32,000 bases of DNA, from positions 1-32,000 of the forward strand of contig BPGA01000001.1 in assembly GCA_026002795.1 (NCBI GenBank), in the 5' to 3' direction. Shown in pieces: positions 6,323-27,490 of the stretch. Both the position numbers and the translations under genes were made by a program. The notes beneath the pieces are model-generated. The model was not told the origin of the DNA. It worked only from the letters and a program-made list of their open reading frames with translations, and made no database searches. Source of the stretch: Candidatus Saccharimonadota bacterium (GTDB taxonomy: Archaea > Nanobdellota > Nanobdellia > Pacearchaeales > GW2011-AR1). The first letter of the stretch is position 1. Every line of letters begins with the position of its first letter.

Positions 6323-6928
6323 TTACCTTTTAGCTTTTAAGAAGTTTTCATTTACAACTTTCCAATTTATAACATTCCAAAAAGCATTTACATATTCTGA
6401 TCTTCTGTTTTGATATTTTAAGTAATATGCATGTTCCCACAAATCAATTCCCAAAATTGGTTTTTTTCCAAGCATAATAGGAGAATCTTGATTTGGTGTT
6501 GTAATTACTTCAAGTTTCTTATCTTTATTTAAAACAAGCCAGCACCAACCGCTTCCGAATAAATTAACTGATTTTGTGTTAAACTCTTCTTGAAACTTCT
6601 CAAAAGAGCCAAAAGTTCTTTTTATAGCTTCAATAATCTCTCCTTCTGGCTTTATTCCTTTTTTAAGGATTAACCAAAAAAAACTATGATTTATATGGCC
6701 ACCAGCATTATTTCTTACTGCTGTTCTTATATCTTCTGGTATAGACTCTAAATTTTTGATAAGTTCTTCTGCACTCTTTTTTTGAAGCTCTGGATATTTT
6801 TCAAGAGCTTTGTTTAGTTTGTCTATGTAAGCTTGGTGGTGTTTAGTGTGATGAATCTCCATTGTTTTAGCATCTATAAAAGGTTCTAGTGCAGAGTAAA
6901 CATACGGAAGATTCGGAAGAGTAAACAT
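6323..6928 (-). CDS. sod: Fe/Mn superoxide dismutase
   Basis: 201 aa. Motifs LPYVYSALEPFIDAKTMEIHHTKHHQAY, GSGWCWL and DLWEHAYYL. A TATA-like TTTATAAAA lies at 6950-6958, 22-30 nt upstream of the ATG. Confidence 0.92.
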   Translation of the reverse strand: MFTLPNLPYVYSALEPFIDAKTMEIHHTKHHQAYIDKLNKALEKYPELQKKSAEELIKNLESIPEDIRTAVRNNAGGHINHSFFWLILKKGIKPEGEIIEAIKRTFGSFEKFQEEFNTKSVNLFGSGWCWLVLNKDKKLEVITTPNQDSPIMLGKKPILGIDLWEHAYYLKYQNRRSEYVNAFWNVINWKVVNENFLKAKR

Positions 6929-7046: not shown

Positions 7047-7127
7047 GCCGACGTGCCAGAGTGGTAATGGAACGGTCTCGAAAACCGTGCCCTTTTGGGC
7101 TCCTAGGTTCGAATCCTAGCGTCGGCG
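7047..7127 (+). tRNA. tRNA-Ser (anticodon CGA), class II with a long variable arm; no encoded CCA
   Basis: Hand-folded. Acceptor GCCGACG/CGTCGGC. Anticodon stem ACGGT/ACCGT with loop CTCGAAA, giving anticodon CGA. Variable arm GCCC-TTTT-GGGC. T arm CTAGG-TTCGAAT-CCTAG. Discriminator G. Followed by TTTTT at 7128-7132. Confidence 0.9.
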
Positions 7128-9207: not shown

Positions 9208-9603
9208 ATGGCAGTTCAATTTGTTGATGTTTCATTATTTGTTTTAAGGTTATTTGTAGGAGCAATTTTCTTATTTCACGGACTACCTAAATTTAAAATG
9301 ACAGCTGAAATGGCTGCAGGAATGAAAAAATCAAAAACTTTTGTTGTTTTGTTAGGTTTTGTTGAGATGATTGCAGGATTGGCTCTTATTCTAGGTTTTT
9401 ATACAAAAATTGCAGCTGTTTTGTTAGGTTTGGTAATGATAGGTGCTTTATACCATAAGATTTCTAAATGGAAGGTTCCTTTTTCTACAATGAACGGAAC
9501 AGGATGGGAGTTTGATCTTGTGTTACTAGGCTCAAATTTGGTTTTGGTTGCAATAGGCGGAGGAGCTATTTCTTTAGATGCTTTGCTTGGTATAGCTTTT
9601 TAA
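9208..9603 (+). CDS. DoxX family membrane protein
   Basis: 131 aa with four hydrophobic helices. The N-terminal LRLFVGAIFLFHGLPKF motif is typical of DoxX. Confidence 0.75.
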   Translation: MAVQFVDVSLFVLRLFVGAIFLFHGLPKFKMTAEMAAGMKKSKTFVVLLGFVEMIAGLALILGFYTKIAAVLLGLVMIGALYHKISKWKVPFSTMNGTGWEFDLVLLGSNLVLVAIGGGAISLDALLGIAF

Positions 9604-12421: not shown

Positions 12422-12432
12422 ATTAAAATGGA
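12417..12432 (+). repeat. Direct repeat copy A (AATAAATTAAAATGGA): sufS stop, spacer and start of the protease ORF
   Basis: Perfect 16-nt identity with 13053-13068. Both copies contain TAA + ATTAAA + ATGGA in the same register. Confidence 0.9.
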
Positions 12433-13057
12433 TAATAGGGTTTGGTTAATTTTAAGACCGCATTACTCACCTTCAGGTGCTCTAGAAAAAGTAGGAATTT
12501 GTGGTAGTGGGTTCTTCATTAATAAAGGCACCTTTGTGACTTCTTATCACATTTTAAATGAATCTTCTTTTATTCCAAATGCTTTTTATTTCAATAAAAA
12601 TATTTTTTTGGTTAATCCAAAAGGGAAAAAAATTGAAATTAATGTTGAGGATGTTTATAAGTTCATCCCAGAATTAGATATAACAATAATAAAAATAGAT
12701 GGTGGAGAGAGATTTTTAATCGAAGAAGATTATAATGAAGGAGACTATGTAAAAAATTTAGGATATCCAGAAAGGTATTCTAAAGAAATATTAGAACCTA
12801 AGGAAATTAGAATAAAAAACCAATTTGAGCAAGAAGGTAAAATTCTAAAAATTTACAATAATTATTCAATGAATGCTAATGACGTAAAAATTTTCAATAA
12901 AGAAGTAATTATCCTTGATTATACTTCTGAATTAGGTTTTAGTGGCGGTCCTTTACTAAAAAATAAAAAAGTTATTGGAGTCATGTCTCACATTTACCCA
13001 CAAAATAAAAATGCTGTTGCAATCTCAATTAAAGAAATAAAAAAACACATTCAATAA
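12428..13057 (+). CDS. Trypsin-like (S1/chymotrypsin-fold) serine peptidase, no signal peptide
   Basis: 209 aa. Ordered His/Asp/Ser triad contexts: GSGFFINKGTFVTSYHIL, LDITIIKID, LGFSGGPLL. It sits between sufS and sufU. Confidence 0.65.
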   Translation: MDNRVWLILRPHYSPSGALEKVGICGSGFFINKGTFVTSYHILNESSFIPNAFYFNKNIFLVNPKGKKIEINVEDVYKFIPELDITIIKIDGGERFLIEEDYNEGDYVKNLGYPERYSKEILEPKEIRIKNQFEQEGKILKIYNNYSMNANDVKIFNKEVIILDYTSELGFSGGPLLKNKKVIGVMSHIYPQNKNAVAISIKEIKKHIQ

Positions 13058-14751: not shown

Positions 14752-14988
14752 TTATTTAAATTTTTTTCCAAGCTTTTCAACCAAAGCTTTTTTGCTTGGA
14801 ACTCCGCTGAAAGCCAGTTTTCCATTAATAATAGTTCCAGGGGCAGTCATCAACTTGTACTTTTTCACAAGCGCTGGCTTTTTTGTGACATCAATTACAG
14901 TATATTTAACGCCGAGCTCATCCAGCATTTTTTCAACTTTTGCGCATCCCGTGCATCCTGGTGTGGTTAAAATCTGAACTCTTACCAT
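14752..14988 (-). CDS. Small thioredoxin/glutaredoxin-fold protein (CTGC active site)
   Basis: 78 aa. The N-terminal beta-strand followed by TTPGCTGCAKV, and the cis-Pro region TAPGTIINGK, fit the archaeal small thioredoxin class. Confidence 0.8.
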   Translation of the reverse strand: MVRVQILTTPGCTGCAKVEKMLDELGVKYTVIDVTKKPALVKKYKLMTAPGTIINGKLAFSGVPSKKALVEKLGKKFK

Positions 14989-15979
14989 TTTTCCATCTTT
15001 TTTTTATTTTAAATTTAGAATAATACCAAATAATTGGTATGACTATTAATGCAATCAAAAGCCACATAGCAGCAGAGTCAGGAATTATATCTCCAACTCC
15101 TTCGTGTTCATGCTCTTCTCCCATTAATTCGGAAGGAAGTCCTGTTGCACTGACAATTTTGTTCCATCCTTTATGAACAATATTTTCTTCATACCACTCA
15201 TGGGCTCCTCCTATTATAAATATTATTGCTCCAAGAATTATTAAAAACCATCCAACTCCTTTTTTAATTTTTTCTTGATGTTTCATAATGGAAGAAGTTG
15301 CATTTACTCCAAGAATGCCGAAAATTGCCAGGAATATCAAAGGAGTGGCTCTTCCTAAGCCATGGACAAAACCCATCCACCAACCAAAAAACACGTTTCC
15401 TTTGATTGCAATATCTCCTAATAAAACATAAAACAAAGGATTCGGACATGCAACTCCTGCATTTCCTAGAAAAAGACCAAGGAAAAATGCTTTACTATAA
15501 TCTTTTCTTTTTTCAATGAATTTTGGCGTTCCCATGTAATGAGGCAGTTCAAATCTCAAAAGCCCTAATTCAGAAAGTCCAAATAAAATTGCAGCTGTAC
15601 CTCCAATCATAAATAAAATTCTGCTAAAAGAGTTTGCTTTTTCTATAGCTTCATCAAGTCCGATTATATTTCCGATGCTAGCAATAAAAATTCCATAAAT
15701 TGAAAGAGTTATTATCAAACCAAAGCTGAAAAGCAAAGCCATTCCCAAACCTTTTTTGTAACCCTTGCCCATTGCCAGAGGAACAATTATTAAAACAAGA
15801 GGAAAAGTGCAAGGCAGTACAATCATTGAAATTCCGGCAAAAAATGAAAATGCAAGGTCAACTGTATTTTTTGACAAACTAAATAAATAAAAAACACTAA
15901 TTATAATTATAACTAAAAGAATTAAACCTAAGAGTGCAAGAAACTTTTTACCAATCTCTTTTTTCATTTCAAAAAACAA
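14933..15979 (-). CDS. ccdA: CcdA/DsbD-family transmembrane thiol:disulfide electron transporter with a C-terminal extension
   Basis: 348 aa and polytopic. Two intramembrane Cys motifs, VLPCTFPLV and GVACPNPLF. An extra His/Glu-rich loop (EEHEHEG) and a final TM helix. The 3' end overlaps the downstream trx start by 56 nt in another frame. Confidence 0.75.
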   Translation of the reverse strand: MFFEMKKEIGKKFLALLGLILLVIIIISVFYLFSLSKNTVDLAFSFFAGISMIVLPCTFPLVLIIVPLAMGKGYKKGLGMALLFSFGLIITLSIYGIFIASIGNIIGLDEAIEKANSFSRILFMIGGTAAILFGLSELGLLRFELPHYMGTPKFIEKRKDYSKAFFLGLFLGNAGVACPNPLFYVLLGDIAIKGNVFFGWWMGFVHGLGRATPLIFLAIFGILGVNATSSIMKHQEKIKKGVGWFLIILGAIIFIIGGAHEWYEENIVHKGWNKIVSATGLPSELMGEEHEHEGVGDIIPDSAAMWLLIALIVIPIIWYYSKFKIKKRWKNGKSSDFNHTRMHGMRKS

Positions 15980-15991
15980 AATTTACTTTAT

Positions 15992-16453
15992 TTATCTTTT
16001 TTGTGTTTGTTTAATTATCAGAATAACTAGCAATACAATTATTAAAACAAATGCTAAAAGCATAATCCAGTTTTGCCAATTATACCCATAGCTTGTATCT
16101 TTGTATCCGGTCATCATCGGCATCATTCTGTAATGCATTCCATACTCAGACATCGTTCTATAATCAATATTCTCGCCACAATAAATTCTTAAAGCCATTG
16201 CAATATGCATAGCTTTTAAGCTTTCACTTCCTTCTCCGCCCATCATTTGATCCATTAGTTTATGAGCTTCTCCAGGATGCATCTGCTCCATGTAATAATC
16301 TCCAATAAGCTCAAGTTGTTCTTCTGTTAGCTTATCACATGAAACTTTCTGTTGAATAAGTGTCTCTGCCTGCGTAAAATTTCTATCATCATGTGCTGAA
16401 ATTACAACTAGGCTAAATAACAAAACTACAAGTACATATATTACTTTTTTCAT
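15992..16453 (-). CDS. Exported Met/His-rich helical protein with a C-terminal TM anchor
   Basis: The start is placed at the ATG at 16453 (MKKVIYVLVV... signal-like), 1 nt after the upstream stop (TAAAATG junction); the track start 16492 would overlap that gene by 38 nt. Contains YYMEQMHPGEAHKLMDQMMGGEGSESLKAMHIAM and RMMPMMTGY, and ends in KQTQKR. Confidence 0.55.
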   Translation of the reverse strand: MKKVIYVLVVLLFSLVVISAHDDRNFTQAETLIQQKVSCDKLTEEQLELIGDYYMEQMHPGEAHKLMDQMMGGEGSESLKAMHIAMALRIYCGENIDYRTMSEYGMHYRMMPMMTGYKDTSYGYNWQNWIMLLAFVLIIVLLVILIIKQTQKR

Positions 16454-16454
16454 T

Positions 16455-16814
16455 TTATTTTCCTCTTTCATTGTCCCCCCATTTATTATCAATATAATCT
16501 GAAATTTCCTGAATTGAATATTTTGGTCTCATTTCCAGGTATGTTTCATATTCTTTCATGCAAAGTCCGCATTCTGTAAGCATTCCTTCCTCATAACAAT
16601 TATATAAGTCAGTATGTTCACAACCACAATAGCATGTAATTTGCCTTAAATCAGATTCATATTGTTTTATATTTTCTAAAATACTACCTTCATAATTTAC
16701 ATATACTTCTTTTTCAGAAAAATTATTTTTTATATTAACTATAACTATGATAGTAAAAGCTAATATTATAGCTAATATAACTAATATTAATAATTTTTTT
16801 CTTTCAAATTTCAT
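16455..16814 (-). CDS. PCYCGC-motif family protein, membrane-anchored
   Basis: 119 aa with an N-terminal TM helix, then ITCYCGCEHTDLYNCYEEGMLTECGLCMKEY...SIQEISDYIDNKWG. The CYCGC core matches the PCYCGC (lipo)protein family as I recall it. Confidence 0.6.
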   Translation of the reverse strand: MKFERKKLLILVILAIILAFTIIVIVNIKNNFSEKEVYVNYEGSILENIKQYESDLRQITCYCGCEHTDLYNCYEEGMLTECGLCMKEYETYLEMRPKYSIQEISDYIDNKWGDNERGK

Positions 16815-16995: not shown

Positions 16996-17646
16996 TTAAC
17001 AAGCACCAACCATACCTCCTTTCACTCCTTGTTCAATCCCTCTATATTTATTTGTTGTAAGATTTATGTAATCAACATTAATTCCATAATTTTCCATTAC
17101 CTGTGCTTTGTTTTCAAGTATGCCTGGAAAGAAAAGAACTTTCCATTTTCCTACTTCTGTAAGAATTTCCTCATCACTCATCTCTGGATGATATTTTATC
17201 AGATATTTTGTAAGTCCACGCATTGCATAACTATGAGCGCAACCACATGCAGGCTGTCCGTTGCTGAAAATTACACTTCTAGCACCACAACAATACTCAC
17301 AAGCAATTCCGTTTTCCATATAATAAAGAATATTAATATACCTTTCAAGTTCAGGTTCAGAAAGAGTTTCAACTCTATCAATATTCCCAAGTAATCTTAT
17401 TGTTGAATCTGCTTTTTTTGGGTCAGTAGGAGAAACATCATCATAAGTTATTCCTAACTCTTCTCCATAGACTTTAGGAACACCTGTTGGAATGATTGAT
17501 GATGCAGGTACTGTTCTAATTTCAGAACCAACACTTTTTGATCCTACTTTTCCTGAGTAGCTATAAATTAAAATTCCAGCAAGTACTATAACAATAATAG
17601 CCTGAATATAAAACTCCCAATCTACTTTCTTATTTTTTAATTTCAT
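16996..17646 (-). CDS. Membrane-anchored Cys-rich ectoprotein, diverged PCYCGC-like domain, ending in GMVGAC
   Basis: 216 aa with an N-terminal TM helix. IACEYCCGARSVIFSNGQPACGCAHSYAMRGLTKYLIKYHPEMSDEEILTEVGKW aligns by eye with the 16455-16814 and 22840-23487 products. Confidence 0.6.
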   Translation of the reverse strand: MKLKNKKVDWEFYIQAIIVIVLAGILIYSYSGKVGSKSVGSEIRTVPASSIIPTGVPKVYGEELGITYDDVSPTDPKKADSTIRLLGNIDRVETLSEPELERYINILYYMENGIACEYCCGARSVIFSNGQPACGCAHSYAMRGLTKYLIKYHPEMSDEEILTEVGKWKVLFFPGILENKAQVMENYGINVDYINLTTNKYRGIEQGVKGGMVGAC

Positions 17647-17683
17647 ATTTTTTTTAAGAAAAAATAAATTATAACTGCTTTGG

Positions 17684-17697
17684 TGAAACTAGTTTCA
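17684..17697. promoter_or_regulatory. Perfect 14-bp palindrome TGAAACTAGTTTCA, candidate operator just upstream of the TATA-like box of the 17646 operon
   Basis: Lies 38-51 nt upstream of the ATG at 17646. On the coding strand it is followed by TTATAATTTATTTT. A near-identical site lies at 24818-24831. Confidence 0.45.
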
Positions 17698-17905
17698 TAG
17701 GTTCTTATAATGTTAGAGATTGATTAAACATACTTGTTTATGATAGAATATAAATAAAATAAAAATAGCTATTAAAATAAAATAAGTTTTACTTTTTTAA
17801 TCCATAAATTAGGCCAACTTTAATTGCACGATATACTATTAATCATAATGAAACAAATATTTTAATTATATCAAGAAAATGTTTTCGAAAAAATATCTCT
17901 ATAAG

Positions 17906-18388
17906 TCAATTTTTTAGTACAACAACATTATTCATTCCGCGACGTTTTCTTTCAATTAATTGTTTAGCCTCAAGCTTATCCAAAAGCCTTGTAAGTCCGA
18001 CTTTTCCTATGTCAAGTCTTTCAAGAAGCTCTGCCTGGAAAATTGTTCCATTTTCTTTTTCAAGAATCTCTATGACCCGCCTTTCTTTTTTGTCAAGCCC
18101 ACTTAAATCCAACTTCTTTTTTCTTTGCCTTATTTTTTTGACAATAATCTTTTCTTTTGGTTTACTAAATATAAGAACTAAACCAAGTACAACTAAAATT
18201 CCGACAATCCCTAAAGAAAGCCAAGTTTGTTGATTAATTCCTTCATTCATTGGGCATGATATAGAATGATTAGGAGCAGTACATGTTGAAGCCACAATTT
18301 CCTTTAAAGCATTTTGAAAAAGAAAAATTATGAAAATTAAAATAATAGCAATTCCTAAAATAAGAAAACCAACATGTCTGTTTTCCAT
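17906..18388 (-). CDS. Membrane-tethered winged-helix (MarR/TrmB-like) transcription regulator with a two-TM hairpin
   Basis: 160 aa. TM1 at about residues 6-24; a 31-aa outer loop with a Cys pair (CTAPNHSISC); TM2 at about 56-74; a basic stretch KPKEKIIVKKIRQRKKK; then wHTH ERRVIEILEKENGTIFQAELLERLDIGKVGLTRLLDKLEAKQLIERKRRG. Confidence 0.7.
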   Translation of the reverse strand: MENRHVGFLILGIAIILIFIIFLFQNALKEIVASTCTAPNHSISCPMNEGINQQTWLSLGIVGILVVLGLVLIFSKPKEKIIVKKIRQRKKKLDLSGLDKKERRVIEILEKENGTIFQAELLERLDIGKVGLTRLLDKLEAKQLIERKRRGMNNVVVLKN

Positions 18389-18393
18389 AAATT

Positions 18394-21201
18394 TTATCTT
18401 ATTTTTCTCTTTTTATTTTTTACTAAAGCTTTTAATAAAGACCTTTTTTTGATAATCTTAATTATAATAAATAATACAACTAAAATAAAAAATAAAATCA
18501 TCAAAATGGAAAAATAAAAAACTTTCTTATCTAAATGTTTTTTAACTTCTTTATTAGAAGATTCAAGTTTATTTTCTTTAGGTTTTCTAACTTCTTTTAA
18601 AGTTAAGTTTATTGTTTTATTGTAAATAGTATTTGCTGTTAAAACCAGTTCTGAAATATCGTTAATTTTCAGATTTAAAGATTCTTTTTCTAAAATGAAA
18701 AGACTTTTATTTTCTTTTCCGAAAAAACTTAAAAATGAACCTTTGCCTTCCAGCAATAAAATTACAATTTCATAACTTTCTATGTTGCCAGTTTCTTCAT
18801 TTTTTATGTAAAAGATTATTCTATCTCCTTCATTAAAAATACCTGTGTATCCTTTAGAAATGTTTTCATAAGAAACAAAATATACTTGTTTTTCTGTTTC
18901 TGTTTTATTTGTTTTTGTTGATGCTTGAGAACTGCCTCCTCCACCACTTCCACCTCCTAAAAATATTACAGGAGTTTCTTCTGAACTATAAACTGAAAAA
19001 TGAGTAACATTAAAAATTAAATTTCCTGAAGAGTAACTTACCTTTTGACAGATTGTTTCAGGGCAGACAGAACCATCTTTTAAAATTCTAGGATTGTTAA
19101 AAGTTAAGTTGTATAAAGTTAATGTTGCAGATTTATTTAGGTTAGGCAATAATGCTGAATTTATCTCTATTCTATTAAACTCTATTTTTACGTTTGAATT
19201 CAAATCTAATAAATTGTCATCAGGAATAGAATCGTTTGTTAAATTTACAACTTCATTAAAAACGATTTTGCCTTTATTTATTTTTTCAAAGGTTAAATTA
19301 GAGATATTTTGGATTTCTTCATAAGAAGAAATTTTTAAATTTGTGGAATCGCCATCAAATCCAGAATAATTTAGATTTAAAATAGAAGAATTAACGTAAA
19401 AACTTACATTTTTTGAAATATTGCCGAATGTGTTATTTGAAAAAACATAAAGAGTATGTTGGCCATCTGAAATGTTGAATGTTGTATTTGTGTTTGTTGT
19501 AAAGTTAGAACCTAAATCAAAATTGTAAACAATTAAATCAGATGCTAAAATTGTAAAATTAAAATTTAAACTTTCGTTTGTTATGTATGTGCTGTTTTTT
19601 GGGCTAATAATTGTTATTATAGGTTTTGTTAAATTTACAAATCTTGTTTCTGTATTAGTTGTCCCACCTAGAGTATCATTTGCAGTTGCATTAAAATAAT
19701 AAATGCCTTCACTGAGGTTAGTATAATTAATAAAAAAAGAGTTTGAAGATGAAATGTTTTTGAATAAAAGAGAAGTTGAATTGTAAAGCCTTATTTCTAA
19801 CATATCAAAATTTAGGTCAAAAGCACTGACATTAATTTGAATGTAATTTCTTCCTAAATAAGAATTATTTATTTCTGTTGGAGAAGAAAAATTTATTGAG
19901 GGAGAATCATCAAGTGTTTTTATTGTAGAAAAAACATCAATTCTTGAATAATTATTTCCTGATGCAGGATCAAAAATAATTTTTCCGCTTTCATTAAAAT
20001 ACTTTTCTAAATCTTTAGGAGTTTTAGTTTGATTTTTTAGAGAAAGGTATTGTTTTAAAAGTGCAACCGCGCCAGAAACATGTGGTGTTGCCATAGAAGT
20101 TCCTGAATTTATTTCATAACTGCCAGAGATGCTTGTTGAGTTGATGTTGTCTCCCGGAGCAAGGAGCATGTCAAGAGGCCATCTATTTGAAAAACTTGAT
20201 ATTGAATCTGTTTTATTGCTTGAGCCAACTCTTGTAGCATTTTGAATGCATGCTGGAGAAGAGATATGTGTGGTATTGTAGTTGTTTCCAGTTGCAATAA
20301 CAACTGAAATATTTTTTGAAATTGCAGAATTTATTGCAGATGCAACAGAAGGAAAATCATTTTGACAAGAATTAAAATTATTATAACAAGAAGTAGGATC
20401 AATTTGACAATCGGTTCCTAGACTCATACTTATTACACTTATGTTAAATTTTGTCGCATTATTAACACACCACTCAATTCCAGCAACCAAGTCGTCAAAG
20501 TTTCCAGCACCAGTTGCATTAATAACTTTAATTGAAACAATTTTAGAATCAGGAGCAACTCCCTTTATAGAACCATTAGCTGAAACAATCCCAGAAACAT
20601 GCGTTCCATGCCCGTGATCATCCATAGGATCAGAGTCTAAATTTATGAAGTCATAGCCACCAAGAACTTTACAAGAAGAATTTTCATCATTACTGCCGAA
20701 ACAACCACCCAAGTCAGGATGCGTATAATTTACACCACTATCAATTACACATACAGTCTGACCTTTTCCAGTTAAATTTGTATTTTGAAACTTTAAATTC
20801 CAAACCTGTGTTGCATTAATTAAAGGTACAGAATCTTGTAAAGAGACATAAATTGGATAATTATAAGTTATTCTTTTAATTTTAAAATTTCTTTCTAACT
20901 CTTCTATTTCTTCTTTTGTAAGTTCAGCTGAAAATCCGTTAAAAGAACTAAACCTGTGTTTAATTTTTCCTTTTAGAAATGATTTATTATAGTTATCTAG
21001 AGTTTGGTTTTCATCTAAACTAACTATAACACTAACTTTCTTTTTTCCAGATTCAAATTCAGAATTAACCTTTAAATCAGTCTTTGAATTTAACTCTTTT
21101 TTTAAATCTTTTTTTTGGTTTTCTTTGATAGGCAAAACAATTGCAGTTAACATTAACATAAACAAACACAAAAATAAAACAATAAACCTCTTTTTTTTCA
21201 T
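18394..21201 (-). CDS. Subtilisin-like (S8) serine protease: signal peptide, I9-like propeptide, repeat-rich stalk, C-terminal TM anchor
   Basis: 935 aa. Catalytic contexts VCVIDSGV (Asp), HGHGTHVSG (His) and GTSMATPHVSG (Ser). About 45 N-x-S/T sequons by eye, a GGGSGGGGSS linker, and a C-terminal helix FYFSILMILFFILVVLFIIIKII followed by a basic tail. Confidence 0.9.
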   Translation of the reverse strand: MKKKRFIVLFLCLFMLMLTAIVLPIKENQKKDLKKELNSKTDLKVNSEFESGKKKVSVIVSLDENQTLDNYNKSFLKGKIKHRFSSFNGFSAELTKEEIEELERNFKIKRITYNYPIYVSLQDSVPLINATQVWNLKFQNTNLTGKGQTVCVIDSGVNYTHPDLGGCFGSNDENSSCKVLGGYDFINLDSDPMDDHGHGTHVSGIVSANGSIKGVAPDSKIVSIKVINATGAGNFDDLVAGIEWCVNNATKFNISVISMSLGTDCQIDPTSCYNNFNSCQNDFPSVASAINSAISKNISVVIATGNNYNTTHISSPACIQNATRVGSSNKTDSISSFSNRWPLDMLLAPGDNINSTSISGSYEINSGTSMATPHVSGAVALLKQYLSLKNQTKTPKDLEKYFNESGKIIFDPASGNNYSRIDVFSTIKTLDDSPSINFSSPTEINNSYLGRNYIQINVSAFDLNFDMLEIRLYNSTSLLFKNISSSNSFFINYTNLSEGIYYFNATANDTLGGTTNTETRFVNLTKPIITIISPKNSTYITNESLNFNFTILASDLIVYNFDLGSNFTTNTNTTFNISDGQHTLYVFSNNTFGNISKNVSFYVNSSILNLNYSGFDGDSTNLKISSYEEIQNISNLTFEKINKGKIVFNEVVNLTNDSIPDDNLLDLNSNVKIEFNRIEINSALLPNLNKSATLTLYNLTFNNPRILKDGSVCPETICQKVSYSSGNLIFNVTHFSVYSSEETPVIFLGGGSGGGGSSQASTKTNKTETEKQVYFVSYENISKGYTGIFNEGDRIIFYIKNEETGNIESYEIVILLLEGKGSFLSFFGKENKSLFILEKESLNLKINDISELVLTANTIYNKTINLTLKEVRKPKENKLESSNKEVKKHLDKKVFYFSILMILFFILVVLFIIIKIIKKRSLLKALVKNKKRKIR

Positions 21202-21329
21202 CTATATAAAAACTAGAAAAGCTTTATATTTTTTATTTTCTCTTTTGTCTCTTTTTTGTTTTTATTAATTTAAAACAAAAATGTAAAAATCTAGAGTATT
21301 TTAGGCCTTTTTGTTTAACAAATTTTAAT

Positions 21330-21908
21330 TTAAACAAAAAAACTCGAGATAAAAAGTCCTGCACTTAAGGCGAGAGCTATCCAATAAATTCTTTTATTCC
21401 AGGCAAAAACTTTTGCTCCATCAAAAGGCATAAGAGGAATCATATTAAATACAGCTAGCAAGGAGTTAATTGTCAAACCAAAACTAAAAAACGCTTGTAA
21501 TGTTTTTCCTGTATTTAGTATTAAAAGCAAAATAAAAAATAAAATAGCAAGAACAATGTTTGTCATAGGTCCTGCTAAGGAAATTTTTCCATTTTTCTCT
21601 CGTGTAATGTATCCATGAATGTAAACAGCTCCTGGTGCTGCAATTATAAATCCGAAGAAAGAAAATAAAACTGCCAGAAAAATCATCCCATAATTTGCTC
21701 TAAATTCTGCAAAAAGTCTGTATCGCTGAGCAATATACTTATGCATTAGTTCATGAAACAAAAATCCGATTCCGGCTGTAAAAAACGCAATGATAAAAAT
21801 AGAAAATTTAAGATTTAGAATGCTGCCTGATAAAAGTATAGCAAATGCTAAAGATATAAATATACCTGCAAAAATCAAATCTTTAATTTCTTTTTCATTA
21901 AACCTCAT
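21330..21908 (-). CDS. M50 family site-2 protease (minimal, no PDZ domain)
   Basis: 192 aa and polytopic. HELMH in a TM helix and FNMIPLMPFDGAKV (NxxPxxxxDG-type motif). Confidence 0.8.
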   Translation of the reverse strand: MRFNEKEIKDLIFAGIFISLAFAILLSGSILNLKFSIFIIAFFTAGIGFLFHELMHKYIAQRYRLFAEFRANYGMIFLAVLFSFFGFIIAAPGAVYIHGYITREKNGKISLAGPMTNIVLAILFFILLLILNTGKTLQAFFSFGLTINSLLAVFNMIPLMPFDGAKVFAWNKRIYWIALALSAGLFISSFFV

Positions 21909-21988: not shown

Positions 21989-22147
21989 TTAAACTCTGAT
22001 AGCATGTTTTGTTATTTCAACACTACAGCTTTTGTTTTTTCTACAGAAATTTTCACATTTTTCAGCCAGGTTTTTTGTTTTATAATAGAATCCGCATTCT
22101 TCACACTGAAATAACTTAATTTTATTTTTTGTTGTTTGTTTTACCAT
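21989..22147 (-). CDS. Small Cys-rich zinc-ribbon-like protein
   Basis: Contains CEECGFYYKTKNLAEKCENFCRKNKSC. The start is uncertain: the track start 22198 overlaps the upstream gene by 77 nt, while M18 (22147) reduces the overlap to 26 nt. Confidence 0.4.
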   Translation of the reverse strand: MVKQTTKNKIKLFQCEECGFYYKTKNLAEKCENFCRKNKSCSVEITKHAIRV

Positions 22148-22796
22148 TCTCATTAACTGAGTTAGTTTTACTTTGAACATTAAAAGAATTGTACTCAATG
22201 ATTATGATATCACCATCTTTCATAAAATAATTTTCAAATTCAAAATTTTCTTTTCCATTTACTATCATTGTTAGATTACCTTTGTCTGTACAATAATTAA
22301 AAATACAACTTGAATTAAAATTTTTTTCCCACACTTGAAAAAACTCTCCTATTGTAAAATCTCTTTTATAAGGCGCTTCAATGTGTATCTCTCCAGATGC
22401 ATCGTGTGTGTGTAAGGGCCTCATTACTCCTTGAGAAATTCCTATGTTTGGGGGGATTAGCTGTTCAGTATCATCAATTAAGATTTTTAGTTTTGAGTGT
22501 ATATGTAATGCTGCATTTTGATGACCTATTATGTTCATTTTTGTTACATCTTCATTTTTAGAGCTCGAACTAAACAAAGCCACAGCCCCAAAAATTAAAA
22601 ATCCAATAACAACAATAAAAATAAACAAGTTTCTTATTTTTTTAGTAAATAAACGATGTTCCTTTCTACTCTTGTTTTCTTCTGTTTTTTTGTCTTTTGT
22701 TAAAGAATGCTTTGCCTTGTTATGCATATCCAAAGCTTCTTGACTACCAAAAACACGGATACATTGTTCACATTTAAATTTTTGTTCTTCTGGCAT
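22122..22796 (-). CDS. Bitopic protein: cytoplasmic C2H2 zinc finger, TM helix, His-rich ectodomain
   Basis: 224 aa. FKCEQCIRVFGSQEALDMHNKAKH fits C-x2-C-x12-H-x4-H. TM helix LFIFIVVIGFLIFGAVALF. The ectodomain contains HIHSKL, LHTHDASGEIHIE and TIGEFFQVWE. Confidence 0.6.
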   Translation of the reverse strand: MPEEQKFKCEQCIRVFGSQEALDMHNKAKHSLTKDKKTEENKSRKEHRLFTKKIRNLFIFIVVIGFLIFGAVALFSSSSKNEDVTKMNIIGHQNAALHIHSKLKILIDDTEQLIPPNIGISQGVMRPLHTHDASGEIHIEAPYKRDFTIGEFFQVWEKNFNSSCIFNYCTDKGNLTMIVNGKENFEFENYFMKDGDIIIIEYNSFNVQSKTNSVNENGKTNNKK

Positions 22797-22839: not shown

Positions 22840-23487
22840 TTAATGTTCGCCAATCCCTTCAACGTGCATGTGCCCGCTTCCACCACAGCCATCTTCCAAA
22901 TCCCAAAGTTCTGCAATTTGCTCAGATGTAAAACCATAATCTCTAATCAATTTTTTTGCTTGACCTTCAAAAGCATACCATCTCCAACATTTACAACAGC
23001 AAGGCCCGCCCTCATGGCTTAACTTCATAGCCTCTTCATAAATTTTCTGTTGTTCTTGACTTAACTGAATTGTTTTTTGATATTGTAAAAGCTTATCAGC
23101 AAGCTCTCTTGAGATATCATAAGGATCATCTGGAATTAATTCTAGATCTCTGCCAATATAAGAATTTTTTTCTTTAATATTAGCTAAGCCTTCAATTTGT
23201 TCTTTATATCTATGAAAGTCCATTGCAGAACAGCAAGAGCCCTGAAGTTTTTCAGTATCAACTCTATCAAAAACATCAGGACCAACACAAAAATTTGTTC
23301 TAGCCTCACTTAAAACTTTAAACTTTGCTTCAAGATTGAAACCAGATATGTCAGAAGAAGCTTGATTTTTAACAGAAATACCTGGCTGAAACAAATAAAT
23401 CCATAAAATTATTAGTGTTGGCAAAGTTACAATTAAAGCTAAAAGTAAAATAAAACTCTTCTTTTTTATTTTAATCTCATTAACCAT
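22840..23487 (-). CDS. Membrane-anchored Cys-rich ectoprotein, diverged PCYCGC-like domain
   Basis: 215 aa with an N-terminal TM helix. Contains GSCCSAMDFH, GGPCCCKCWRWYAFEGQAKKLIRDYGFTSEQIAELWDLEDGCGGSGHMHVEG. Confidence 0.6.
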   Translation of the reverse strand: MVNEIKIKKKSFILLLALIVTLPTLIILWIYLFQPGISVKNQASSDISGFNLEAKFKVLSEARTNFCVGPDVFDRVDTEKLQGSCCSAMDFHRYKEQIEGLANIKEKNSYIGRDLELIPDDPYDISRELADKLLQYQKTIQLSQEQQKIYEEAMKLSHEGGPCCCKCWRWYAFEGQAKKLIRDYGFTSEQIAELWDLEDGCGGSGHMHVEGIGEH

Positions 23488-23505: not shown

Positions 23506-23985
23506 TTAAACTTTACAGATAACATCTCTTGTTAAGAGGTTTATCGCAACTAATAACAATAAAGTGGAAGCAGCCTGAATTTCTAAACCATAAAAAGGAA
23601 GAATGCTTAATGTTGCTGTCAAACCAAATAAACCTAAAAAAGCAGGAAACAATCCAACAAAACATCCAGGGCATGCTCCTCCGAGAATTCCGCCAAATGC
23701 TCCTAAACCAATTATTCCTGTATGTTTACCAACTCCAGCTTCTTTAAACCTCAAAATTGAAAGGTTGATTGTTAAAGCTACAAGTGATGGTACGATTAAA
23801 AAATTAAAAAGTAAGAAAGGAATTCTGAACCACAAAACAAATGAATTAAAAACATAAAAATTTACATACAGCTTATTTATTATTAAATTTATAGCAATAT
23901 AAATTATAAAAATTCCTATAAAGGAAAAAACATATGGCCTTTCAAAAATAGCTTTTTTTATTCTTTCAATTCTACTTTTTTTCAT
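23506..23985 (-). CDS. Polytopic membrane protein with an intramembrane CPGC motif
   Basis: 159 aa with about 4-5 hydrophobic helices. GGILGGACPGCFVGLFPAFLGLFG, plus one more Cys near the C-terminus. I could not assign a family. Confidence 0.55.
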   Translation of the reverse strand: MKKSRIERIKKAIFERPYVFSFIGIFIIYIAINLIINKLYVNFYVFNSFVLWFRIPFLLFNFLIVPSLVALTINLSILRFKEAGVGKHTGIIGLGAFGGILGGACPGCFVGLFPAFLGLFGLTATLSILPFYGLEIQAASTLLLLVAINLLTRDVICKV

Positions 23986-24033: not shown

Positions 24034-24765
24034 TTATAAAATAGATTGTATAGCACCCTCAAGGTTCTGCCATGGAACAGCGCCTGAAACAGGTATAGCT
24101 CTATTTGATTCTTTGTTTACAATTATAAAGTAAGGGGTTCCTTGACCTCCAGAAGAAGTTGCTTGAGAAAATTCTTTTGTGACTTCAGATCTGTACTTGT
24201 TGCTATCTAAACAATTATTAAATTCTTGTGTATTCAAACCGAGTTGCTGTGCATAAGATTTAAGACTTTGGGTGTCAAGCGCGTTTTGGTTTTCAAAGAG
24301 CATATCATGATACTCCCAAAATTTTCCTTGATCATAAGCACACATAGATGCTTCAGCTGCTTTTTGTGCAAAAGGATGTATTGAACTTAAAGGAAAGTGT
24401 TTGTACACAAGATTAACCTGACCATTTTTGAAATAATCACTCTGTTTAAACTCTGCTAATGCACCAAAATGAGCTTGAGCACAAAAAGGACACTGAAAAT
24501 CTGAAAATTCAATAATTGAAACAGGAGCATTTTTATCTCCTAAAACAGGATCATTATCCTCAATTAAAGAGCTAACTTTTATTGAAGGTTGTTCTGTTGG
24601 TTGTGTTTCAGATCCTGTATTTACAACGTTCCCGCTACTTTTACCTCCTCTTAAAACAAAAAACCCGCCAATTACAATAATAGCAAGCAAAATAAAAGTT
24701 GAGTATTTCCACAAATCTTGCTTCTTTATTGTTATTGTTCCACTTTCTTTTTTTTCTTCAGCCAT
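24034..24765 (-). CDS. Membrane-anchored DsbA-like thiol:disulfide oxidoreductase
   Basis: 243 aa. N-terminal TM helix (STFILLAIIVIGGFFVL), active site FSDFQCPFCAQ, and a cis-Pro region GTPYFII. Confidence 0.85.
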   Translation of the reverse strand: MAEEKKESGTITIKKQDLWKYSTFILLAIIVIGGFFVLRGGKSSGNVVNTGSETQPTEQPSIKVSSLIEDNDPVLGDKNAPVSIIEFSDFQCPFCAQAHFGALAEFKQSDYFKNGQVNLVYKHFPLSSIHPFAQKAAEASMCAYDQGKFWEYHDMLFENQNALDTQSLKSYAQQLGLNTQEFNNCLDSNKYRSEVTKEFSQATSSGGQGTPYFIIVNKESNRAIPVSGAVPWQNLEGAIQSIL

Positions 24766-24817: not shown

Positions 24818-24831
24818 TGGAACCAGTTTCA
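24818..24831. promoter_or_regulatory. Imperfect palindrome TGGAACCAGTTTCA, second copy of the candidate operator, adjacent to the TATA box TTTATAAATTT (24803-24813)
   Basis: With one flanking base each side, GTGGAACCAGTTTCAC shares 13 of 16 positions with GTGAAACTAGTTTCAT at 17683-17698. It lies 53-66 nt upstream of the DsbA ATG. Confidence 0.4.
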
Positions 24832-26497: not shown

Positions 26498-27490
26498 TTA
26501 ACATGTTAGAATTTTATTTTTTGTGATGTACTGATAAGCAGAGTAAGCAGCAGTACAACCATCTGCCACGCCCGTAATAAGCTGTTTGAATGGTTTATCT
26601 GTTACATCTCCAGCAGCATAAACTCCAGGAATATTTGTTTCAGAAGTTGCATGATTAATCTCTATTTCTCCTTTTTCATTAAGTTTAACACCTAAATTTT
26701 TTGCGAGATCAGAGATAGGAATATGACCTATTGCAACAAAAACACCCTGAACCTTCAACTCTTTTTTTCCTTTATATGGTTTATCTAAAACAACACTCTC
26801 AACAGAATTCTTACCTTTTATTTCAATAACATTTGTATTGTTTATAATTTCTATTTTTTTATTTTTTTTAATGCGTTCCATGTTTATTGGCTCTGGGTGA
26901 ATTTGTTCTCCTCGATAGATAATGTAAACTTTTTTTGTATACTCTGAAAGAAGTAATGCATCTTTTGCAGCGCTATCACTTCCTCCTATAACTGCAACAA
27001 CTTTTCCTTTAAATAAAGGTCCATCACATAAAGCGCAATAACTAACCCCTTTATTTTCAAATTCTCGAGAACCTTTTACAGAATCAGGAAGTTTTCTCCA
27101 TTTTGTTCCAGTAGCAAACAAAATTGTTTTTCCAACATAATTTCTTTTATTCTCGGTTGAAACTAAAAAACAATTTCCGTTCTTTTTTATTTCGCTAACT
27201 TTTTCATTTTTTATTGTAACTTCTTTATAAGATTTAGCATGCTCTTCAAGTTTTTTCGCTAGCTCTACTCCAGACAATCTTATGAATCCAGGATAGTTTT
27301 CAACAATATGTGTTGTTGTGATCACCCCACCAATTGGAAGCTCTGTCCCATAAGTGCTTCCTAAAACAAGTGTTTTTAATCCAAGTCTTGCAGCATACAT
27401 TGCAGCAGCTAATGCTGTTCCGCCAGCACCTATTATTATAAAATCATACTGGTTTATTTTTTGTTTTAAATCTTTTATTTTCTTTTTCAT
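26498..27490 (-). CDS. trxB: Thioredoxin reductase (low-Mr FAD/NAD(P)H type)
   Basis: 330 aa. FAD site DFIIIGAGGTALAAAMYAAR, redox-active CALCDG, NADPH site VIGGSDSAAKDAL, and C-terminal GVYAAGDV. Confidence 0.9.
   Translation of the reverse strand: MKKKIKDLKQKINQYDFIIIGAGGTALAAAMYAARLGLKTLVLGSTYGTELPIGGVITTTHIVENYPGFIRLSGVELAKKLEEHAKSYKEVTIKNEKVSEIKKNGNCFLVSTENKRNYVGKTILFATGTKWRKLPDSVKGSREFENKGVSYCALCDGPLFKGKVVAVIGGSDSAAKDALLLSEYTKKVYIIYRGEQIHPEPINMERIKKNKKIEIINNTNVIEIKGKNSVESVVLDKPYKGKKELKVQGVFVAIGHIPISDLAKNLGVKLNEKGEIEINHATSETNIPGVYAAGDVTDKPFKQLITGVADGCTAAYSAYQYITKNKILTC
26505..26520 (-). repeat. Direct repeat copy within the trxB 3' end (codons for ...KNKIL)
   Basis: Identical 16-mer to 25990-26005; the offset is 515 bp. 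Confidence 0.7.

Follow-up and report, generated by a model that had tools for sequence, protein, structure and literature searches.

How does a transcription factor that is anchored in the membrane reach its DNA? The question is raised by three adjacent minus-strand genes in a 32,000-nt stretch of low GC content (~29%; hereafter, the window), which comprises positions 1 to 32,000 of contig BPGA01000001.1 (assembly GCA_026002795.1) and is placed by GTDB in the archaeal order Pacearchaeales. The genes encode a minimal M50 site-2 protease (S2P), a membrane-anchored S8 subtilase and a 160-aa protein with two transmembrane (TM) helices and a winged helix, which we refer to as REG. A first-pass annotation of the window, which had placed the three open reading frames (ORFs) correctly, proposed that they form an archaeal counterpart of the SREBP pathway, in which the subtilase cuts the outer loop of REG, the M50 protease cuts within the membrane, and the freed winged helix acts on palindromes nearby. 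We found that REG is conserved across a DPANN group (Pacearchaeota, Woesearchaeota and Nanoarchaeota) and that the two proteases are chance or clade-local neighbours of it. The reading that we favour, with a probability of about 0.65, is that REG is a membrane-resident one-component transcription regulator, which detects extracellular copper or thiol stress and controls the promoters next to it.

The architecture described for REG in the first-pass annotation was borne out. TM segments at residues 6-24 and 57-75 enclose a loop (25-56) that contains CTAPNHSISC, and the C-terminus is assigned to the cytoplasm because 11 K/R residues directly follow TM2 (positive-inside rule). Hydropathy and charge thus predict that the winged helix-turn-helix (wHTH) hangs on TM2, which would run from outside to inside. 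DUF7343 (PF24034) matched residues 100-158 with 38.5 bits (cutoff 27.6; E = 1e-9) and MarR_2 matched the winged helix (~97-158) with 32.3 bits (cutoff 27), while MarR (PF01047) fell slightly under its cutoff (24.4 versus 24.6 bits) and neither a TRASH nor an Lrp domain was found by Pfam or NCBIfam. There were 2061 homologues, the best 120 of which are 158-165 aa long, 63-78% identical to REG and all annotated with a precomputed DUF7343 match. In an alignment of 28 homologues, the recognition helix and wing were invariant (TR.LDKLE.KQ..ERKRRGMNN). The N-terminal MENKxVG motif and both TM helices, of which TM2 is Gly-rich, were also unusually conserved, which suggests that the hairpin has a role beyond anchoring; it may transmit a signal or form a dimer interface.

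Outside the membrane, a short turn was strongly conserved. Among 81 REG sequences, C36 and C45 were each present in 80/80, H41 in 73/81, M47 in 80/81 and Q54 in 81/81, giving the consensus C-x(2-5)-H-G-x-x-C-x-M (C36..H41..C45-P-M47 in the window). Cys, His and Met together are the usual ligands of Cu(I). This pattern is consistent with the earlier suggestion that the Cys pair of the loop provides a redox or metal input. In an AlphaFold2 model of moderate confidence (pLDDT, the predicted local distance difference test, of 68), residues 2-35 and 46-74 are helical, the outer segment consists largely of helix extensions, and a turn of 10 residues (8-10) is bounded by two Cys at the helix ends. 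The basic linker (75-99) is modelled as disordered and is followed by wHTH helices at 100-111, 118-125 and 129-149. A fold search of the PDB with this model gave no match at E<=0.001; what it returned were unspecific helical hairpins, among them ATP-synthase c subunits and Esx proteins, which are uninformative. A sequence search of the PDB with the wHTH gave weak MarR/Lrp matches, the best of which was YusO/MarR (1s3j; E = 0.0055).

The genomic context of REG was analysed in species-representative genomes at 80 loci, which were the best of 213 matches, were fetched with the 28-sequence alignment and extended up to ±10 kb; all of them are from Pacearchaeota, Woesearchaeota or Nanoarchaeota-type metagenome-assembled genomes; individual loci are given below by L numbers. 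Every protein of the window was searched against all ORFs of these loci, in which genes were called simply as the longest ORFs. The bias of this set toward close relatives should, if anything, favour the detection of synteny with the window.

A palindrome, TGAAAC-NN-GTTTCA, accompanied REG in most of these loci. The window contains two matches at <=1 mismatch versus 0.21 expected, and 2 of 100 shuffles reached two; these are the palindromes at 17684 and 24818 to which the first-pass annotation had drawn attention, and both are real, the former exact and the latter with one mismatch. Across the 80 loci (1.086 Mb), we counted 26 exact copies and 65 at <=1 mismatch, where a first-order Markov model predicts 0.0 and 7.6, respectively. 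The copies were intergenic in 57 of 65 cases, against a share of intergenic bases of 9.7%, and 61/80 loci had at least one. In contrast, 537 kb from M50-anchored DPANN loci without REG contained no exact copy and two one-mismatch copies, which is the background level.

The position of the palindrome is fixed relative to the promoter of the gene behind it. Thirty-four sites end exactly 38-39 nt before an ATG start codon, and the context aligned across genomes reads TGAAACTAGTTTCA-CCAAAGCGg-TTATAa, then ~22 nt and ATG. The palindrome thereby appears to lie flush against a TFB-recognition element (BRE) and the TATA box of an apparently leaderless gene. At the window gene p216, the ATG lies ~18 nt past the TATA-like element, implying a transcript that is leaderless or nearly so. 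The second site, upstream of dsbA, repeats this geometry (palindrome, 9 nt, TATA; cgataaatt TATAAA) with a leader 14 nt longer. In several loci, the TGA stop codon of REG is formed by the first three bases of the palindrome, and in 27/79 loci a palindrome follows within 150 nt of REG. Because six-bp arms with a 2-nt spacer cannot form the loop of an RNA hairpin, the palindrome is best explained as a protein-binding DNA site. A role as terminator was rejected on two further grounds, the fixed position relative to BRE and TATA and the lack of a T-run behind it.

The genes behind the palindrome fit the earlier proposal that the palindromes mark the output of the system toward metal and thiol genes. 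They belong to the p216/p223 family at 18 sites, to the Met-rich membrane protein family p227 at 10, to cupredoxin-like proteins at nine and to DsbA at one; others encode small secreted Cys-rich proteins or MerTP-like proteins. No operator-like site (<=3 mismatches, intergenic) was found before suf, M50 or S8 genes in the window.

Several features of the operator-linked genes were recorded in addition. The spacer between REG and p216 (17647-17905) is 259 nt long in the window versus ~48 nt in many relatives, and a 54-aa ORF that the closest relatives have between the operator and their p216 homologue is absent from it, all frames being closed. Operator-linked envelope proteins of 54, 116 and 216-234 aa share a C-terminal tail, G-(A/E/T)-M-V-G-G-C (GGMVGAC in p216 of the window); examples are L081 3020-3184, L086 835-1506 and 1549-1899, and window 16996-17646. 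The tail could act as a terminal signal for metal binding or modification. Secreted mini-proteins of 69-79 aa, rich in CxxC/CGC and metallothionein-like, follow the operator in Woesearchaeota-type loci (L016 774-983, L034 2447-2656, L043 5893-6123, L046 10549-10758, L051 10578-10787 and L030 10636-10875). Unlike the leaderless targets of p216 type, their genes have a conserved leadered transcript (TTAATTAAAT..GGAGG).

The neighbourhood of REG was rich in thiol, Fe-S and copper genes. Upstream, SufS was found in 32/80 loci and SufU in 29/80, often immediately before REG and on the same strand. DsbA was near REG in 22/80 loci and a TrxR-like reductase in 12/80; DUF1858 and ArsR-type genes occurred in smaller numbers, the ArsR-type helix-turn-helix gene in ~8 loci. 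Downstream, the p216/p223 family was present in 25/80 loci, usually directly behind REG and the operator, and the REG strand continued with p227 in 20 loci and DUF411 in 17. Cupredoxin-like proteins (34 loci) and CopZ-like HMA proteins (32 loci) were overwhelmingly downstream on the same strand. A Cu-type P-type ATPase was present in 34 loci, with 31 of 36 matches downstream and co-directional, and it passed the NCBIfam copper-ATPase model TIGR01511 with 597 bits (cutoff 397). Counting just the 38 loci whose downstream sequence extends for 8 kb or more, we found the ATPase in 24 and one copper gene or more in 28. All other DNA-binding genes were each confined to few of the loci.

Of this conserved island, the thiol and Fe-S genes are present in the window, and no Cu-ATPase was found in its 32 kb. 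Its plus strand contains sufBD-sufS-(trypsin-like)-sufU-x-sufC, with superoxide dismutase and DoxX genes also part of the island, and its minus strand, in order of coordinates, CcdA, g166, the CYCXC-type p119, p216, REG, S8, M50, a C2H2-finger protein, p215, p159 and dsbA (Table 1). Gene spacing indicates that p119 is probably in the p216 operon. No NCBIfam or Pfam family was found for p216/p223, p227, p215 or p159.

Table 1. Features of the window around REG (coordinates are positions in the window; minus, minus strand)
Feature	Coordinates	Strand	Remarks
CcdA/DsbD-type thiol-disulfide transporter (DsbD_TM)	14933..15979	minus	last gene of the p216 array, 12 nt after g166
g166	15992..16492	minus	no assigned family; p216 array; recurs near REG in 7/80 loci
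p119, CYCXC/PCYCGC-type Cys-rich membrane protein	16455..16814	minus	NF041379 7.6e-9, below cutoff
p216, bitopic Cys-rich envelope protein (CEYCCGA..ACGCAHS, C-terminal GGMVGAC)	16996..17646	minus	predicted primary target
p216 core promoter, BRE-like CCAAAGCAG then TATA-like TTATAATTTA	17665..17683	minus	predicted from the sequence
Operator 1 (putative), exact palindrome TGAAAC-TA-GTTTCA = TGAAACTAGTTTCA	17684..17697		ends 37-38 nt before the p216 start codon
REG, predicted transmembrane transcription regulator, 160 aa	17906..18388	minus	two-TM hairpin and C-terminal winged helix
S8 subtilase, anchored, 935 aa	18394..21201	minus	Peptidase_S8 PF00082 2.5e-47 and Inhibitor_I9 propeptide
Minimal M50 site-2-type metalloprotease, 192 aa	21330..21908	minus	Peptidase_M50 PF02163 36.2 bits (cutoff 27.2)
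C2H2-finger/1-TM protein	22122..22796	minus	island member, often beside M50
p215, bitopic Cys-rich protein (CC..., CCCKC...)	22840..23487	minus	distant likeness to p216, by motif inspection only
p159, multi-TM membrane protein with CPGC	23506..23985	minus	11/80 REG loci, 7/80 M50 loci
DsbA-like membrane-anchored thioredoxin-fold protein	24034..24765	minus	Thioredoxin_4 3e-28, DSBA 1e-20; heads the array that ends in REG
Operator 2 (putative), TGGAACCAGTTTCA	24818..24831		one mismatch (TGAAAC-TG-GTTCCA on the minus strand); the dsbA ATG is 52 nt downstream

Some further observations concern the island itself. A gene for a trypsin-like serine protease (Trypsin_2 1.9e-8; 12428-13057, plus strand) lies between sufS and sufU in the SUF operon, and a homologue is also found beside suf genes in L073; such a gene is not usually expected in an operon for Fe-S assembly. 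Because an Fe/Mn superoxide dismutase (6323-6928, minus strand), DoxX (9208-9603, plus strand) and a TrxR-like protein (26498-27490, minus strand) flank the island, the homeostasis of redox state, metals and Fe-S takes up ~20 kb of the window. The genes directly upstream of REG in some genomes encode FTR1-type iron permeases and ferredoxin-reductase-like (FAD/NAD-binding) proteins (L031 9013-9852, L058 7465-8310, L007 9280-9966 and L054 7940-8632), a hint that iron uptake or reduction may also be among the functions of the island. In L003, L010, L014, L018, L022, L026 and L090, REG occurs as two or three paralogues within 10 kb. The second copy often precedes dsbA, and that of L022 is followed, right behind the stop codon, by an operator copy of its own. 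An unrelated tRNA-Ser (7047-7127) was the only match when the window was scanned with Rfam and for tRNAs.

These results suggest a simple mode of action. Two REG molecules would pair, probably through their Gly-rich and highly conserved TM hairpins, so that the two C-terminal winged helices could bind TGAAAC-NN-GTTTCA next to the BRE and TATA box of the gene downstream of REG. In the window, this would place p216, p119, g166 and CcdA under its control, with the slightly degenerate palindrome before dsbA as a second site. The input would be read outside the cell by the turn C-x(2-5)-H-G-x-x-C-x-M. Its ligand is most likely Cu(I) or another thiophilic metal, and oxidation of the Cys pair is the alternative. 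The output would be transcription of envelope genes for thiol and metal handling, including in most relatives the cluster of cupredoxin, CopZ, Cu-ATPase and DUF411 genes. Activation is somewhat likelier than repression because the operator lies just upstream of the BRE. We infer that REG regulates while it resides in the membrane, by analogy with other transmembrane transcription regulators (TTRs) and from the operator that adjoins its own gene in many genomes. An operator at the REG stop codon would hold the site near the membrane while the protein is inserted co-translationally.

Several points weigh against this interpretation. The link between REG and the palindrome is one of association, and 19/80 REG loci have no site at <=1 mismatch. 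The targets visible in the window are thiol-related and Cys-rich, so that a redox signal fits them equally well. The structural model is of moderate confidence, and dimerisation through the TM hairpins is an assumption for a protein without the canonical MarR dimerisation helices. In the loci with an ArsR-type gene, that protein is a possible alternative binder. Finally, the 80 loci are phylogenetically related, and the counts are not counts of independent events.

The alternative that survives best retains the architecture and the operator and changes the signal: Dsb and CcdA proteins would oxidise or reduce C36-C45, and REG would report the thiol-disulfide state of the envelope, like the periplasmic disulfide switches of CadC, ToxR and TcpP, in which extracytoplasmic Cys residues are functionally important. 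The operator-linked genes of the window (dsbA, CcdA and Cys-rich proteins), the recurrence of DsbA and TrxR near REG and, in the model, a turn short enough for a disulfide between its flanking Cys to be geometrically plausible all point this way. However, a disulfide switch would need neither the invariant Met47 nor the near-invariant His41, which are typical copper ligands, and the dominant conserved genes downstream are copper-specific (the TIGR01511 ATPase, CopZ-like HMA, cupredoxin-like and DUF411 proteins). In addition, the Met-rich and Cys-rich target proteins point to metal handling. We consider a purely redox-based input a realistic but minority possibility. The two inputs are not mutually exclusive, since copper also oxidises thiols.

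It is unlikely that another regulator binds the palindrome and that the winged helix of REG serves protein-protein contact or anchors the chromosome. Such a division of labour would accommodate the associative nature of the link, the modest wHTH scores against DUF7343 and YusO/MarR, the ArsR-type gene that recurs upstream and the loci without a strict site. The palindrome nevertheless tracks REG, falls to background density in DPANN DNA without it and directly follows the REG stop codon in many genomes, while no other DNA-binding gene is common enough in the loci to take its place. Moreover, a near-invariant recognition helix and wing occur together with a near-invariant operator in proteins that are 47-78% identical overall.

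The remaining alternatives involve the proteases, of which M50 has the closer tie to REG. The M50 protein agrees with its first-pass description: it exceeds the Pfam cutoff, has ~6 hydrophobic segments and carries HELMH at residue 52 and NMIPLMPFDG at 155 (PFDG at 161), which correspond to the two S2P-type motifs, HExxH and NxxPxxxxDG/LDG. It was found near REG in 5/80 loci, within 1.6 kb and all in one clade, and directly upstream in L002, L014, L022 and L073 with gaps of -20 to 45 nt. A relaxed M50 search combined with a scan for HExxH in membrane proteins near REG added only three unrelated HExxH membrane proteins. In a neighbour-joining tree of 81 REG sequences, the M50-linked loci fell into one clade of 15 tips, 6 of which have M50. 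Reciprocally, REG was present in 10/80 M50-anchored metagenomic loci, in every one of them with an M50 identity of at least 59%, and the M50s of these loci lie inside the same copper/thiol island (DsbA, C2H2 protein, p159, TrxR and cop genes). Distant M50 orthologues (<55% identity) were instead in housekeeping contexts without island genes. Gene order and spacing varied, with genes inserted between M50 and REG in the window, L019, L097 and L114-116, and neither protease was near the closest REG relatives (77% and 75% identity; L081-L086). M50 is, in summary, a clade-restricted resident of the REG island, which does not imply that it acts on REG.

If it does act there, its role might be degradation. 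In the clade of the window, M50 could degrade REG or another membrane protein of the island, such as the C2H2 protein, and so tune the response. Known cases of an S2P acting on a TTR are TcpP and ToxR, where RseP-dependent proteolysis inactivates the regulator and does not release it (PMC10202637). The C2H2 protein noted in the first-pass annotation is indeed bitopic and has the motif C-x2-C-x12-H-x5-H, although its zf-C2H2_6 score (22.4 bits) is below the cutoff of 25. Its predicted topology is type II: the finger is inside, and an outer domain of ~150 aa contains HxH..LHTHD..IH motifs. The protein adjoins the minimal M50 repeatedly (also in L014, L019, L088, L090, L095, L107, L113 and L154). 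To our knowledge, all known S2P substrates are cut in type II (N-in/C-out) helices. The predicted topology of REG is reversed relative to them, because its wHTH hangs on an out-to-in TM2; by its predicted N-in topology, the C2H2 protein is the better substrate candidate. Since residence in a shared island is weak evidence for an enzyme-substrate relation, we regard an M50-only link as improbable.

The S8 subtilase, in contrast, has no conserved tie to REG. Its description also held: an N-terminal hydrophobic signal, an outer catalytic domain with an intact triad (DSG 154, HGTH 198, GTSMATP 367) and a C-terminal TM helix (899-917) with a K/R-rich tail, to which 51 N-x-S/T sequons can be added. 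Its stop codon is 5 nt (AAATT) from the REG ATG, as reported. The first-pass annotation had proposed to test whether S8 and the hairpin-wHTH protein, with or without M50, co-localise across archaeal genomes, and had named a linkage confined to this genome as a finding that would refute the cascade. S8 was near REG in 1/80 loci (L022, 5.1 kb away and non-adjacent, within ±10 kb), a relaxed search (phmmer E<=1, catalytic domain alone) still gave 1/80, and S8 was found in 0/80 of the M50-anchored loci; for S8, the linkage thus lacks conservation outside this genome, and for M50 it largely does. Of three full-length S8 homologues, none (0/3) had DUF7343 or M50 beside it. S8 itself is without a close orthologue, its best non-self match being 49% identical over 38% of the query compared with best identities of 78% for REG and 71% for M50, and it belongs to a family of >5900 diversified DPANN surface subtilases. 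Because M50 and REG are directly adjacent in the four loci named above, S8 looks like an insertion between them, which we judge to be a lineage-specific insertion of an unrelated surface protease outside the regulatory system.

The 5-nt spacing does not set S8 apart either. In 51 loci, REG starts <=60 nt behind a co-directional gene, in 30 of them <=10 nt, and the genes directly upstream come from many families (SufS, SufU, p159, DsbA, C2H2, FTR1, FNR-like and CopA, among others). Since REG closely follows many different genes, the spacing is not specific to S8. Unannotated direct-upstream neighbours were checked for proteases, and none was found; they were FTR1 permeases, FNR-like reductases, a P-type ATPase, a PALP enzyme and others. 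Apart from M50, there was no protease among the genes directly upstream of REG.

What remains in favour of the release cascade is the adjacency of three genes on one strand, which as a single-genome observation has no statistical weight alone, the intact motifs of M50 and of an outward-facing S8, an outer segment of ~31 residues that is formally SREBP-like, and an open niche, as the substrates of archaeal S2Ps are unknown (PMC9263693). With the linkage unconserved, the outer segment modelled as helices and an 8-10-residue turn stapled by two Cys, and the domain to be freed predicted on a helix opposite in orientation to those of S2P substrates, we regard release of the REG winged helix by S8 and M50 as very improbable, and the S8 arm as a conserved system of regulated intramembrane proteolysis is effectively excluded.

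The membrane-resident regulator can be compared with known systems. As defined by Demey et al. (2023; PMC10269533), TTRs are proteins for which both a DNA-binding domain and one or more TM regions are predicted, and by this definition REG is a TTR, a known kind of regulator. Such proteins exert their control from the membrane and are frequent in archaea (PMC10269533), where ArnR and ArnR1 are examples (PMC6396743). Like ToxR, TcpP, CadC and ArnR/ArnR1 (PMC10269533, PMC6396743), REG combines a membrane anchor and a DNA-binding domain in one polypeptide, and as in these proteins, its signal would be read outside the cell or in the membrane and transcription controlled from there. It differs in that the DNA-binding domain is C-terminal behind a two-TM hairpin, whereas it is N-terminal in ToxR, TcpP, CadC and ArnR; in a sensor that is a turn of ~10 residues without a folded periplasmic domain; in a wHTH of DUF7343/MarR rather than OmpR type; and in an operator that adjoins the regulator's own stop codon.

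CopR of Pyrococcus furiosus (PF0739) activates cop genes from a semi-palindromic binding site that immediately precedes the BRE (PMC7830388), and is a precedent for the activation that we favour for REG. It resembles REG in lying beside copA/copZ-type genes, in a (semi-)palindrome upstream of the BRE of copper-induced promoters and, as we infer for REG, in Cys-based metal sensing. CopR, however, is soluble and octameric, with an N-terminal Lrp-type helix-turn-helix and a cytoplasmic TRASH sensor, whereas REG is embedded in the membrane and has an extracytoplasmic Cys/His/Met turn; the two share no sequence relationship past a generic wHTH, and REG is not CopR because it has no TRASH domain. 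Canonical MarR proteins are soluble, have ~140-150 aa and form their dimer interface from helices that flank the wHTH. REG, for which YusO of Bacillus subtilis (1s3j) is the closest solved member, has the wHTH above the MarR_2 cutoff and a palindromic operator that implies a dimer. It lacks the N- and C-terminal dimerisation helices, is anchored in the membrane and folds in the cytoplasm only over ~97-160, i.e. ~60 residues after the linker. Because these helices are absent, REG is not a canonical MarR. With the SREBP/S1P (S8)/S2P (M50) pathway and bacterial anti-sigma cascades, the locus shares a hairpin protein in the membrane whose outer loop is short and, in one genome, both protease families nearby. 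The released domain of SREBP, however, is N-terminal on an N-in/C-out helix, whereas that of REG would be C-terminal on an out-to-in helix, and the protease linkage of REG is unconserved.

What is new about REG is an uncharacterised, DPANN-restricted family with reversed domain order, a minimal metal-ligand turn and a defined, conserved operator and promoter. Literature searches found nothing on DUF7343 or the operator sequence and nothing relevant on copper regulators of DPANN archaea. More tentatively, REG may be an extracytoplasmic metal sensor of the TTR type, the first in archaea, in which a Cu(I)-binding turn would signal through the hairpin to a minimal winged helix and a cis promoter at the regulator's own stop codon. 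Coupling of transcription, translation and insertion would then hold the operator at the membrane. In the clade of the window, the M50 of the island might also turn over REG or the C2H2 protein, as in the case of TcpP.

Most DPANN archaea are uncultivated; their genomes are tiny, and hardly any of their regulators are characterised. For these organisms, REG adds a complete candidate regulatory unit across hundreds of species, consisting of a sensor-regulator, a 14-bp operator with its promoter geometry, and copper, thiol and Cys-rich envelope targets. A tempting claim, that the locus encodes an SREBP-like protease cascade in archaea, is removed as unsupported, and a link of M50 to REG within the clade of the window would be interesting but is not supported by the co-residency of the two in the island. 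Because the target promoter starts at the stop codon of the regulator itself, REG is well suited to the question with which we began, as a minimal system from nature in which to ask how such a factor finds its way from the membrane to DNA.

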